Part shown: in pieces, positions 60,751-63,652 of the stretch
How the letters are laid out: every line of letters begins with the position of its first letter
Position numbering within the stretch: position 1 is the stretch's first letter
Source of the DNA: a virus
Taxonomy: Duplodnaviria > Caudoviricetes
Length of the DNA: 64,000 bases
Reading direction: 5' to 3' (one strand)
Virus record (IMG/VR): IMGVR_UViG_3300005615_000001
Location: 7,508 to 71,507 of that record
The notes under the pieces: model-generated
The model's input: only the letters and a program-made list of their open reading frames with translations
Databases searched by the model: none
Told to the model about the DNA's origin: nothing
Made by a program: the position numbers and the translations under genes

Positions 60751-60947
60751 CGTACCTGCCGCCTCTTCATCTGTTGCGAATGGACGCGTCGGAGGGGAAG
60801 TACTTCGGTGTCTGCATTGCGCGGGGATGCAAATGGCGCGCTAAGAAGAGGGCGCTGCTTGCAGATGCTGAGCAGGATGCGCGACTTCATTGCCAGACCG
60901 CCAATCTGGCCGAGCAAGCAAAGGTGCAAAACAAGGACGGTTCATGA
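60747..60947 (+). CDS. hypothetical protein
   Basis: GTGA/ATGA coupling. Confidence 0.5.
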   Translation: MTYLPPLHLLRMDASEGKYFGVCIARGCKWRAKKRALLADAEQDARLHCQTANLAEQAKVQNKDGS

Positions 60948-62968
60948 CCGTCATCGACTCGGTTCTCCGCGCGTCCTCCTACCAACGCCGCATCGCTATC
61001 GCCGAGCAAGCTGACCGGCGGCAGGACCAAGCGGTGGACGCCGTGCTCGCGGATGGATTTGATCTCGACTGGACTCGTATCCTCGCCAATCCCGATTCAT
61101 TCGCACCGGTTGATGGCATCGAAGAAGCGCTGCGCCGCGAGTTCAAACGCGAGAGTTTCCGGAGCACCATCGACACGCTCAACCTCAGCGGAAGGCTGAT
61201 CGCGACCTTCATCCAGCAGAAACATGAAGAGGACATCGGCATCATCAATCCAGCGCCGATCCTCACGTTCAAGGAACCAGATCTTTCCGCGCCGGCAGAT
61301 GTCCTCTCCTACTGGAAGCGCATCCTGAAACTGACGGACGGCGAAGCCAACGCCATCCTGCAAAGCGTCATCGACAGCAACACGGACGGCAACATCATCG
61401 CCGATCGCATCACGCGCGAACTCGTGAAACGACTCGCCGCGCTGCACCGCGAGATCACGACGCAGCGGATCGCCCAGGTTGGTACCGGCACGCCGATCAA
61501 CGAAAGCGACACCCTCGCGGAGTTCATTCGCCGAGCGCGTGAAACGTTCCCCGACCAGTCGCGCGCATTGCTGGAGACGGAATATCGAACGCGACTCACG
61601 GGCGAATACGGAGCGGCGCGGCATGAACAGATCCTCGCGCGGCAGGCCACGTTTCCGTTCACTCAGTTTTTTGCGATCAAGGACACTAGAACGACGTGGT
61701 ATTGCTGCCTCCCTATGGGTTCATCGGGGCCTGGGGGCACTGGGTACGTCGCTGCTAGCGATGACATAACATGGTTCACTTGGAATCCGCCGAATCACTA
61801 CCGATGCTTCACTCCGGACACGCTCATAGATGCGAAAGCGACTGCGGCATTTCGCATGTCATACACTGGCGAAATCGTCGAACTGCAAACACGGAACGGG
61901 CGCGTCCTTTCCGTCACACCTAACCACCCGATAGCAACCGCGCGGGGGTTTGTGGCTGCCGAGATGATCCGCAAAGGAGACCACCTGCTCTGCCGCGAGC
62001 GCGATGTCGAAACGCGCCTTGAGATGGTTGGCGCAGTACACGAACAGAATCGCCCACCCCGCATTGATGACGCGTTCCACATGTTTGGTGAGCGCTGGCC
62101 GGTACGGCGTGCGCGTACTGCCGCATGCGACTTCGACGGCGACGCCGAGTTCGGGGACGGCCATGTCGACGTTATAGCCGTCGATGGCCAGCTGCTGGAG
62201 AACTACGTGGTTGCGCGAGCGCAGCTCCTCAGCAATTTCGTTCTCGAAACGGCCGCGGCGCCACCGCTTGCTGCGCATCCTAGCGTCGGCGAGCGTGACG
62301 TACTCGGAGTGTGGCCGTTTCCTGCCGATGTTGGACCTGTGCAGGCGGTCCATCCTGCTGCGCCTCTCGACAGCGGACATGTTCTGCCACCGGAGTTCAT
62401 TCTCTTCGGAGCGACTGCGAAATTCGACGCCTTGTGCGCGAAGGTGCGCGGCGATCGTGTGCCACTCGGCGCCGCATTCTTTCGAGAGTTGATTGACAGT
62501 TGCGCCCTGCCTATACCGAACGGCCAGCACATGATCGCTCAGCCCGAGAACGCGAGCGTTACCGCGAGATCGAACGCCAGCGCGCCGCAGACGCTTGCGG
62601 ATCGCCTTGATGCCGACGCCATATCGCCGTGCGAGCGAGATCATGGTTTCGCCGGCTTGGTAGTCTTGGACGATATCGTTGAGATTCGACGGTTCAGGTA
62701 CTCTGGTCACGTATACGACCTCCAAACGACAACAGGTCTTGTGATTGCGAACGACATTTTATCAAGCAATTGCCGCGCTACGACGTCCCCAATCGGCTAC
62801 CGGGAAGCGCAACGCATGGGCATTCTCGCGGCAGACGGGCGCACGAAGATCGCGGTCACAGGAGGCAACCCGAACCGACCATTCGGTGATCCGCCGCGCC
62901 TTGCGGTCAACCCTGAGAACGCGGATGATGTTCGCGAAGTGAAACCGGCACCAGGGTTCGGAGGATGA
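60944..62968 (+). CDS. head morphogenesis protein (Mu gpF/SPP1 gp7-like) precursor containing an intein
   Basis: LETEYRT...YGAAR, QFFAIKDTRT...C; spliced junction restores PPNHYR-CRAT. Confidence 0.88.
   Translation: MTVIDSVLRASSYQRRIAIAEQADRRQDQAVDAVLADGFDLDWTRILANPDSFAPVDGIEEALRREFKRESFRSTIDTLNLSGRLIATFIQQKHEEDIGIINPAPILTFKEPDLSAPADVLSYWKRILKLTDGEANAILQSVIDSNTDGNIIADRITRELVKRLAALHREITTQRIAQVGTGTPINESDTLAEFIRRARETFPDQSRALLETEYRTRLTGEYGAARHEQILARQATFPFTQFFAIKDTRTTWYCCLPMGSSGPGGTGYVAASDDITWFTWNPPNHYRCFTPDTLIDAKATAAFRMSYTGEIVELQTRNGRVLSVTPNHPIATARGFVAAEMIRKGDHLLCRERDVETRLEMVGAVHEQNRPPRIDDAFHMFGERWPVRRARTAACDFDGDAEFGDGHVDVIAVDGQLLENYVVARAQLLSNFVLETAAAPPLAAHPSVGERDVLGVWPFPADVGPVQAVHPAAPLDSGHVLPPEFILFGATAKFDALCAKVRGDRVPLGAAFFRELIDSCALPIPNGQHMIAQPENASVTARSNASAPQTLADRLDADAISPCERDHGFAGLVVLDDIVEIRRFRYSGHVYDLQTTTGLVIANDILSSNCRATTSPIGYREAQRMGILAADGRTKIAVTGGNPNRPFGDPPRLAVNPENADDVREVKPAPGFGG
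61859..62710 (-). CDS. antisense-nested HTH-HTH-Vsr/DUF559-like putative homing endonuclease (283 aa)
   Basis: Two HTH repeats, NUMOD3-like segment, FENEIAEEL...QQLAIDGYNVDMAVPELGVAVEV...NAGWAILFV; GGAGGT SD 7 nt before GTG. Confidence 0.85.
   Translation of the reverse strand: MTRVPEPSNLNDIVQDYQAGETMISLARRYGVGIKAIRKRLRRAGVRSRGNARVLGLSDHVLAVRYRQGATVNQLSKECGAEWHTIAAHLRAQGVEFRSRSEENELRWQNMSAVERRSRMDRLHRSNIGRKRPHSEYVTLADARMRSKRWRRGRFENEIAEELRSRNHVVLQQLAIDGYNVDMAVPELGVAVEVACGSTRTPYRPALTKHVERVINAGWAILFVYCANHLKARFDIALAAEQVVSFADHLGSHKPPRGCYRVVRCDGKDAPVPCLQFDDFASV
62718..62764 (-). promoter_or_regulatory. extended -10 promoter (TG-A-TAAAAT, 62764-62756) and SD (GGAGGT, 62723-62718) of the nested gene
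   Basis: Reverse complement of intein codons ILS and DLQ. Confidence 0.65.
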
Positions 62969-62969
62969 G

Positions 62970-63173
62970 ATGAGTGGTTCAACGCCGGACGGCATCAGAG
63001 CAAAAGAAGTGACATCATCAGACGACTATCGTGATGAGCGCAGGCCGGTTGGCGTGAGGTACGTGCATCAAGATTTGATGACCAAGATGCACGACAAAGC
63101 GGAACGCTCAGATCCGTGCCCGTGCGGGAGTGGCGTGAGGTTCGGGGATTGCCACTACGATGGTCAACGCTAA
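62970..63173 (+). CDS. SEC-C motif protein
   Basis: RSDPCPCGSGVRFGDCH; GGAGG SD. Confidence 0.75.
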   Translation: MSGSTPDGIRAKEVTSSDDYRDERRPVGVRYVHQDLMTKMHDKAERSDPCPCGSGVRFGDCHYDGQR

Positions 63174-63217: not shown

Positions 63218-63652
63218 ATGAGCATCGGAAACATCTGCGGGCATGTTGATTTGCAGCCGTGCCAGCGTCCTAACCGTCGCGGGTGGAAGCACGCTTACGG
63301 TCGCGATGTCGAGATGCCGCATGATATCTGCGAAGGGTGCGGCGGGTGCGTCGATTGCGGCCAAGGATGTAACGAGAACCCGGTTGGTACGATGGCCTTG
63401 CCGAGCGGCGCGGCGCCGATTAATATCGCGCGCGCCACGCTTTTTGAGCGCCGAGTGTTGTACCTCCGTGAGTTGCAACGCATGCGAGCCGAAGGCGTCA
63501 GATCATCTGCGCATCTGGCATATCTCGACGGCGGCATCGCCGTAGCGCGGGCGATATTGATACGCCTCGGCGATCGGCTCGGACAAGAGCCGAGGTCAGT
63601 TGAAGAGTACTTGCTCATGCTCGCGGCGCCATCAGAATCGCTGCCGATGTAG
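63218..63652 (+). CDS. Cys/His-rich hypothetical protein
   Basis: GGAGG SD; CEGCGGCVDCGQGC. Confidence 0.55.
   Translation: MSIGNICGHVDLQPCQRPNRRGWKHAYGRDVEMPHDICEGCGGCVDCGQGCNENPVGTMALPSGAAPINIARATLFERRVLYLRELQRMRAEGVRSSAHLAYLDGGIAVARAILIRLGDRLGQEPRSVEEYLLMLAAPSESLPM

Follow-up and report, generated by a model that had tools for sequence, protein, structure and literature searches.

Putative expression signals of an antisense homing-endonuclease gene in the splicing-block codons of a phage head-gene intein

The window analysed here is a 64,000-nt stretch of the phage record IMGVR_UViG_3300005615_000001, which belongs to a rhizosphere phage, and its G+C content is 60%. Its plus strand carries a probable MuF-like head-morphogenesis gene interrupted by a class-1 intein, while the minus strand of the intein carries an open reading frame (ORF) for a putative homing endonuclease (Table 1). 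The start codon of this nuclease gene, its Shine-Dalgarno (SD) sequence, and a candidate extended -10 promoter element are the complements of intein codons in blocks F and G, and comparison of homologous loci points to selection on the synonymous sites of both blocks.

The host protein matches the PHROG family phrog_15127 'head protein' (E 1.5e-29), and in GenBank phages the counterpart loci carry annotations for a MuF-like minor capsid protein or for head morphogenesis. Pfam finds no family, Phage_Mu_F included, in the N- and C-exteins taken alone. The insertion site is identical in every locus inspected and lies ahead of the Cys in an N-C-(R/K)-C-type motif.

The intein is recognised by the Pfam Intein_splicing profile (E 1.7e-9) and contains the marks of a class-1 intein: Cys1, the block B residues T-P-N-H (61916-61927), Asn322, and a +1 Cys. 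Its two ends (residues 1-66 and 286-322) are modelled by AlphaFold2 (AF2) with a predicted local distance difference test score (pLDDT) of 87-98, and the structure aligns with the Mtu RecA mini-intein over 105 residues (VIA-align; Z 13.0, root-mean-square deviation 1.3 Å). In the model, these two ends together form the Hint domain. The ~220 residues between the Hint halves would be mostly unstructured filler that is merely kept free of stop codons, and the host-frame linker at residues 150-283 has a pLDDT of 25-43 and is predicted to be disordered.

One stretch of the region between the Hint halves, host frame 62039-62209 (plus strand; intein residues 79-135), lies opposite the nuclease core and is a conserved mirror image of it. 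The host motifs D-F-x-G-D ... V-D-V-(V/I), which read D-F-D-G-D ... V-D-V-I in the window, face V-A-V-E-V of the nuclease. This stretch is modelled with a pLDDT of 76-90, yet the Hint matches align only ~105 residues, which are the two ends alone. Genuine dual coding would account for this model, as would an AF2 artefact from mirrored covariation.

The nuclease gene on the minus strand is predicted to encode a free-standing homing endonuclease with two helix-turn-helix (HTH) DNA-binding modules and a Vsr-like PD-(D/E)xK core. Pfam gives weak HTH and restriction-endonuclease-like matches on this ORF. A profile built on the nuclease matches PDB entries 2lvs (E 1.2e-7) and 3hrl (E 1.9e-5), as well as resolvase or transposase HTH domains. 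The AF2 model has a mean pLDDT of 86.8, and Foldseek pairs its core with the catalytic domain of I-Bth0305I (3r3p; TM score 0.69, probability 1.00) and also with Vsr (1cw0/1vsr) and 3hrl. Residues Y179, N180, D182, and E193 do not vary across the nuclease alignment and are all present in the window copy. The C-terminal motif Y-R-V-V-R, in which Y260, V262, and R264 are invariant, is the minus-strand mirror of block B. The literal E-D-x-H-D motif is not found in the window nuclease, whose likeness to the EDxHD family is at the level of the fold only. Judged by sequence and model, the protein would have nuclease activity and act as a homing endonuclease.

Table 1. Positions of the intein, the antisense nuclease gene, and their candidate signals in the window
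Feature	Position	Strand	Description
Host gene open frame	60890..62968	+	692 codons from first TTG; from the ORF list
Intein, 322 aa	61805..62770	+	Cys1 TGC 61805-61807 to Asn322 AAT 62768-62770; +1 Cys 62771-62773
Nuclease stop TGA	61859..61861	-	Complement of intein Ser19 TCA, in R-M-S-Y-T-G
Putative homing-endonuclease gene	61859..62710	-	ORF of 283 codons + TGA; exact codon-opposite register to host frame
Block B, T-P-N-H-P	61916..61930	+	T38, N40, H41, P42 invariant in intein alignment
Vsr-like PD-(D/E)xK core (predicted)	61961..62200	-	Residues 171-250; Y-N-x-D (D182), V-A-V-E-V (E193)
Host-frame linker	62252..62653	+	Intein residues 150-283; open frame opposite nuclease gene body
Two HTH DNA-binding modules (predicted)	62435..62683	-	Residues ~10-43 and 59-92; profile matches and model helices
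Nuclease start GTG	62708..62710	-	Complement of block-F His codon CAC
Block F, H-V-Y-D-L-Q	62708..62725	+	CAC GTA TAC GAC CTC CAA
SD sequence GGAGGT	62718..62723	-	Complement of Asp-Leu-Gln codons GAC CTC C
Predicted transcription start	62747..62751	-	~7 nt past -10, the usual sigma-70 spacing; leader ~39 nt
Candidate extended -10 TGATAAAAT	62756..62764	-	Complement of block-G ATT TTA TCA; no -35 hexamer
Block G, I-L-S-S-N	62756..62770	+	ATT TTA TCA AGC AAT

A preliminary description of this locus, made from the DNA of the window, had placed each of these signals, and all of its coordinates proved correct when read directly and checked against the ORF frames. The complement of block F does read GGAGGT, a 7-nt spacer, and GTG, and the complement of block G does contain the candidate extended -10 element 45 nt upstream of this GTG. 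Its remaining claims concern conservation and function and are taken up with the comparative results.

The codon-opposite register is identical in the 13 loci first examined, which range from 42 to 69% G+C. A tblastn search with the antisense protein matched 58 phage records, and the hosts of these phages are Gordonia, Mycobacterium, Haemophilus/Aggregatibacter, Pseudomonas, Salmonella, Vibrio, Cronobacter, and Idiomarinaceae. In all 12 of the GenBank phage records that were fetched (those behind L001-L013), the nuclease match is antisense to a gene annotated for head morphogenesis or a minor capsid protein, which is called MuF-like in those records that give it a name. The nuclease gene itself is annotated in 0 of the 12, and only the long head-gene ORF is called. 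The antisense protein has zero homologs in a database of 5.8 billion proteins, which says nothing on orphan status because gene callers probably keep only the long sense ORF. A single-protein query of viral and genome contigs also found nothing; an alignment query was needed, and an alignment-based scan of IMG/VR recovered 203 further relatives.

Of the 203 IMG/VR relatives, 80 were fetched, and the comparison covers 93 homologous loci. A subset of 75 loci, in which the nuclease start falls on block F, was reduced to 39 clusters of <50% nuclease identity, here called lineages. The locus filter required the block-F His, so its presence in 39/39 lineages is partly circular, whereas the figure of 75/93 is non-circular.

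Sequence comparison indicates that both strands are coding, in different parts of the element. In related pairs, substitutions pile up at position 3 of the nuclease codons, which is position 1 of the host codons, over nuclease residues 16-240, while the host frame dominates the substitution pattern at both ends of the element. The host frame stays open across the nuclease beyond what codon usage would give by chance: low-GC members have probabilities of 10^-5 to 10^-7, and the sum over the 39 lineages gives 10^-87, but in the 60% G+C window by itself P is only ~0.03. By this measure, selection keeps the host frame open, which indirectly supports protein splicing of the intein. As the preliminary description had noted, the penultimate intein residue is Ser (S-S-N) in place of the customary but non-obligatory block-G His. 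Across the 39 lineages this residue is His in 20, Ser in 13, Lys in 3, and others in 3.

The nuclease stop codon had also been proposed as a signal. The register forces it to lie opposite a host codon for Ser or Leu in every case, and in 38/39 lineages it falls within the first ~35 intein codons, at varying positions outside the splicing blocks. In seven lineages (L013, L021, L041, L046, L050, L065, and L073), the stop lies opposite intein codon 2 or 3 (Leu TTA/CTA) and the antisense ORF spans nearly the whole intein, and in L028 it lies in the N-extein. The TGA opposite the Ser codon of the window is real, but as a conserved signal it was rejected since its position varies between lineages.

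The start codon of the nuclease gene is anchored by comparison. The GTG of the window aligns with the homolog starts, which are ATG in 28 and GTG in 11 of the 39 lineages, and the conserved nuclease N-terminus M-x-x-K/R begins at the aligned start. The first HTH module, which begins at residue 10, would be cut short by any start farther downstream. In 75/93 loci, a 22-residue segment H-[V/I]-[Y/F]-[D/N/S/T]-L ... N-C is present, and the complement of its His codon is an ATG or GTG that opens an ORF of 223-336 codons. The nuclease starts elsewhere in the remaining 18 loci and, where readable, the start lies at a His codon a few codons farther from V-Y-D/N-L.

The SD sequence ends 7 nt before the GTG (spacer 62717-62711). 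Each codon column was tested against the codon usage of the exteins of the same gene and against a composition-matched null, in which extein usage was tilted to the G+C content at third codon positions (GC3) of the segment from block F to block G. The matched null used 1000 resamplings, and a stricter tilt was set at GC3 0.34. The Leu of V-Y-D-L is coded by CTC, whose complement is GAG, in 34/38 lineages, whereas 8.3 are expected (P 2e-22, matched null). Where Asn precedes this Leu, it is coded by AAC in 18/20 cases (P 1.6e-4). GGAG or GAGG stands at the fixed position in 27/39 lineages, and the SD duplex energy compared with synonymous resampling gives a Fisher P of 1.9e-6. Phe occupies the column three codons ahead of the block-F His in 23 lineages, 21 of which code it as TTT (P 4e-8, matched null). 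The complement of TTT, AAA, is nuclease codon 4 (Lys); the window has Tyr TAC at this position (62699-62701). This bias suggests that the nuclease N-terminus or an A-rich initiation region also constrains intein codon choice there. The comparison thus strongly supports a start codon and SD sequence embedded in block F.

Promoters of the extended -10 type, TGnTAxAAT, are read by sigma-70 polymerase without a -35 element. The candidate in block G has this form: TGATAAAAT contains the TG at -15/-14, its hexamer TAAAAT has the required A and T at positions 2 and 6 and matches the consensus at 5/6 positions, and it ends 45 nt before the GTG. It resembles such promoters in having TGnTAxAAT without a recognisable -35 and differs from them in lying wholly inside opposite-strand coding sequence, where it would be maintained by synonymous codon choice. 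The position of a -35 would lie in the C-extein, outside the element, which fits reliance on TGn. A simple sigma-70 scan for -35/-10 pairs found neither a promoter nor a minus-strand terminator; the scan requires a -35 and misses the extended -10 because no -35 hexamer exists. The predicted leader (62681-62749, minus strand) folds less well than its shuffled versions (z +1.68).

In the window alone, TGNTAWAAT occurs once in the 64 kb on both strands, at the candidate site, although ~0.6 occurrences are expected and the count is not significant. Any TGn-extended -10, defined as TGn followed by a hexamer matching at >=5/6 positions on the antisense strand of the block F-G segment, has a probability of 0.0018 under window-wide codon usage (11,649 codons, with TTA making up 1.5% of Leu codons) and 0.002 under the composition-matched null. 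Retention of the rare codons TTA and TCA that form the -10 in the window has a P of 4e-4.

Among the 39 lineages, such an element is present in 16. The matched null predicts 2.4 with a maximum of 8 in 1000 resamplings, the extein null predicts 1.5, and the stricter tilt to GC3 0.34 predicts 4.2 with a maximum of 10 in 1000. Twelve of these 16 share the exact 45-nt distance between element end and start codon that the window has, against 1.65 expected (matched null). The sense strand, used as a control, contains 1 extended -10 against 1.75 expected, and extein control stretches contain ~0. The best -10 score differs from synonymous resampling with a Fisher P of 1.7e-17. The bias is located in block-G columns 16-18, which favour ATT, ATA, and then ACA (Thr) or GTA (Val); at the relevant columns, Thr is ACA in 9/10 (P 9e-6), Ile is ATA in 12/23 (P 5e-4), and Val is GTA in 9/19. 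Taken together, the favoured block-G codons are ATA, ATT, ACA, TCA, and GTA. Codon choice is unbiased at columns 1, 2, 6, 9, 13, 15, 20, 22, and 23. A promoter in block G is well but not conclusively supported; the -10 element probably fires, and transcription would start near 62749.

In five lineages with no 45-nt site (L054, L080, L074, L001, and L060), TATAAT-like hexamers (ATGTATAAT, CTGTATAAT, TGTTATAAT) lie 26-30 nt upstream of the start, between blocks F and G. These hexamers may represent an alternative promoter position.

The preliminary description had named random synonymous codons in homologs as a result that would refute it; the 39 lineages present the opposite. Its expectation of codon conservation in homologs held for CTC and for the A/T-ending codons of block G, both of which exceed synonymous expectation. 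A preference for CAT over CAC at the start, which would give ATG, has a P of 0.014 that falls to not significant under the matched nulls, and it was rejected.

The fading of the CAT preference is one of several observations that weigh against reading blocks F and G as expression signals. Others would fit an explanation in which the motifs are passive by-products of conserved residues (V-Y-D-L, I-I-x-x-N) in an A/T-rich mobile element, with no selection for expression. The SD of the window by itself is unremarkable (p 0.30), being expected 30% of the time from the amino acids, and its significance comes from the family comparison. Any ATG or GTG in the codon-opposite register is necessarily the complement of a His codon. 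GC3 in the non-signal columns of the F-G segment is 0.58, compared with 0.72 in the exteins, which makes the extein-usage null lenient, and for this reason the composition-matched nulls were used instead. Yet CTC is a G/C-ending choice within an A/T-leaning block, the excess of extended -10 elements survives the tilt to GC3 0.34, and the control strand and control regions are flat. The synonymous-site tests largely refute this explanation, which is considered highly improbable.

A second explanation accepts the SD sequence and start codon but not the promoter. Transcription would then come from a -10 located 26-30 nt upstream, from the C-extein or a downstream gene, or from read-through, while the rare A/T-ending codons of block G would slow sense translation before the splice junction or lower leader structure. 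This is where the lack of a -35 in the window counts, as does the absence of a TGn-extended -10 from 23/39 lineages; about half of the lineages, mostly of high G+C, lack one. Ten of the 19 lineages with G+C >=0.62 do not have even a 5/6 hexamer, and the promoter solution is therefore not universal. Several lineages have their best -10 at 26-30 nt before the start in place of 45 nt, the whole F-G block is somewhat rich in A/T at third positions, and ATA, ACA, TCA, GTA, and TTA are all rare codons. In addition, the -10 elements were scored on an E. coli-type consensus, which may not be that of the host. However, the codon bias is phase-exact for TGnTAtAAT: column 17 prefers the rare ATA, while column 16 prefers the common ATT. 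The 45-nt spacing is shared by 12 independent lineages, the sense strand lacks the motif, and the flanking columns show no excess of rare codons. Nor is a minus-strand promoter evident farther upstream, since every annotated neighbouring gene is on the opposite strand. A block G without promoter function is accordingly regarded as rather unlikely.

A third explanation concerns the window copy alone and treats its antisense gene as a decaying relic, in which the signals are ancestral and the nuclease is no longer active or expressed. The window nuclease core reads A-C-G-S-T-R-T-P at 62099-62125 (minus strand; residues ~196-204) and has Thr where about two thirds of lineages carry the His of G-G-x-W-H or x-x-H-P, which also weighs against an active element; the window copy may be catalytically impaired or inactive. 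Its start is GTG in place of ATG, its -10 hexamer matches at only 5/6 positions, and its two open frames are only mildly improbable at 60% G+C, as given above. The searches also gave no relative of >35% identity by which to judge recent mobility. On the other side, the ORF is full-length without a frameshift, the family-invariant residues (Y179, N180, D182, E193, and others) are all kept, the AF2 model is confident, and the rare TTA and TCA codons of the -10 are retained. The His is in any case missing in about a third of lineages. A relic is held to be quite unlikely.

The reading preferred here, which is judged reasonably probable from the sequence comparisons, is that of a two-strand mobile element in which the start codon, SD sequence, and -10 element of the nuclease gene are written in the codons of the C-terminal splicing segment. 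On the plus strand, a class-1 intein interrupts the MuF-like head gene immediately ahead of a conserved Cys. The nuclease gene occupies the minus strand in codon-opposite register, and its start codon would be the complement of the His codon that precedes V-Y-D-L. The SD sequence GGAGG(T) would be the complement of the (Asp/Asn)-Leu-Gln codons, with Leu held at CTC, and the -35-independent, TGn-extended -10 would be supplied by the complement of the block-G codons for hydrophobic-hydrophobic-(Ser/Thr). Since such a -10 works without a -35, the whole cassette could travel inside the intein borders. Host sigma-70 polymerase would then read it in any recipient phage, with nuclease expression timed independently of late transcription of the head gene.

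A stronger form of the proposal holds that opposite-strand nucleic-acid signals, and not the chemistry of splicing, fix parts of the splicing motifs. In that form, the His would exist as a start codon, CTC would serve the ribosome-binding site, and ATT/ATA/(T/A)CA would serve the -35-independent promoter, giving a self-contained two-strand cassette for any invaded phage. It is given slightly better than an even chance. The preliminary description had likewise proposed a self-contained cassette within the intein borders. The codon conservation supports this, but its extension to any host gene was too broad, as the element occupies one site in all loci inspected.

Antisense nucleases in inteins are already known. 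Gosselin, Arsenault and Gogarten (bioRxiv 10.1101/2025.01.02.630785) reported that minor capsid proteins of actinophages contain full inteins with VSR-like endonucleases encoded on the antisense strand, and the architecture of an intein with an antisense nuclease is thus published since 2025. The window shares with these inteins the full intein, a probable minor-capsid or MuF-type host gene, the antisense Vsr-like ORF, the open host frame, and an in-frame insert predicted to be unstructured, and Gordonia and Mycobacterium phage members of this type are among the tblastn matches. That survey covers actinophages only, whereas the family described here adds phages of Haemophilus, Salmonella, Pseudomonas, Vibrio, and Cronobacter and >200 IMG/VR contigs. 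The window ORF differs in its extent, which runs from block F to the N-terminal Hint lobe. Nowhere does the preprint use the words promoter, start codon, or ribosome, and it does not discuss expression of the nuclease. None of the papers searched appears to report expression signals that are embedded in blocks F and G and shaped by selection at synonymous sites.

Where the preprint deals with endonuclease VII-like inteins, it discusses a cluster to which 'Angelicase', Affeca, Keitabear, and Sedona belong. By tblastn, Angelicage, Affeca, Keitabear, and Sedona have an antisense Vsr-like ORF opposite their MuF-like genes. Loci L002 and L007 are those of Gordonia phages Angelicage and Vivi2.

The fractured genes described by Dassa et al. 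2009 (PMC2677866) combine split inteins with a free-standing Vsr-like homing-endonuclease gene. The window nuclease falls in the same superfamily as these and as I-Bth0305I (Taylor et al. 2011, PMC3239194), according to its fold match with 3r3p. Further likenesses to the fractured genes are a free-standing nuclease gene with its own control elements, placement in the endonuclease slot of an intein, and overlapping coding regions. In the fractured genes, however, the intein is split, the nuclease is drawn between the halves, and a 5' hairpin and late-promoter motifs are present. In the window, the intein is contiguous, the nuclease is antisense, the candidate signals are the complement of splicing-block codons, and no literal E-D-x-H-D occurs. 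The Synechocystis DnaX intein, as summarised in 10.1101/2025.01.02.630785 from Gorbalenya 1998, contains an antisense LAGLIDADG ORF; by that summary, it resembles the window in carrying a homing endonuclease on the opposite strand and differs in nuclease family and host gene.

Downstream of the head gene, the window contains two small Cys-rich ORFs on the plus strand, 62970-63173 and 63218-63652, which are unrelated to the intein finding. One ends in a SEC-C-like C-P-C-G-S-G...C-H motif, and the other contains clusters of the C-x-x-C-x-x-C-x-x-C type.

The codon choice behind these signals had been suggested as a search signature for the class, and in block F it serves as one. The 20-nt signature GGN CAT GTN TAY RAY CTC CA is found in at least 120 IMG/VR stretches, and in 118 of the 120 matches listed, the complementary ATG opens an ORF that matches the nuclease profile with E <1e-5. 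In practice, the signature finds such elements, which gene callers probably miss, with ~98% specificity among the matches listed.

The embedding of signals in blocks F and G offers an explanation of how an antisense homing endonuclease may be expressed from within a late phage gene without intergenic DNA of its own. If it is correct, host polymerase could make the nuclease from inside the late structural gene of any phage that the element invades. The element would be a natural case in which one short stretch of DNA specifies splicing residues on one strand while its opposite strand supplies a promoter, a ribosome-binding site, and a start codon; this triple constraint can be measured at the synonymous sites of dozens of independent lineages.

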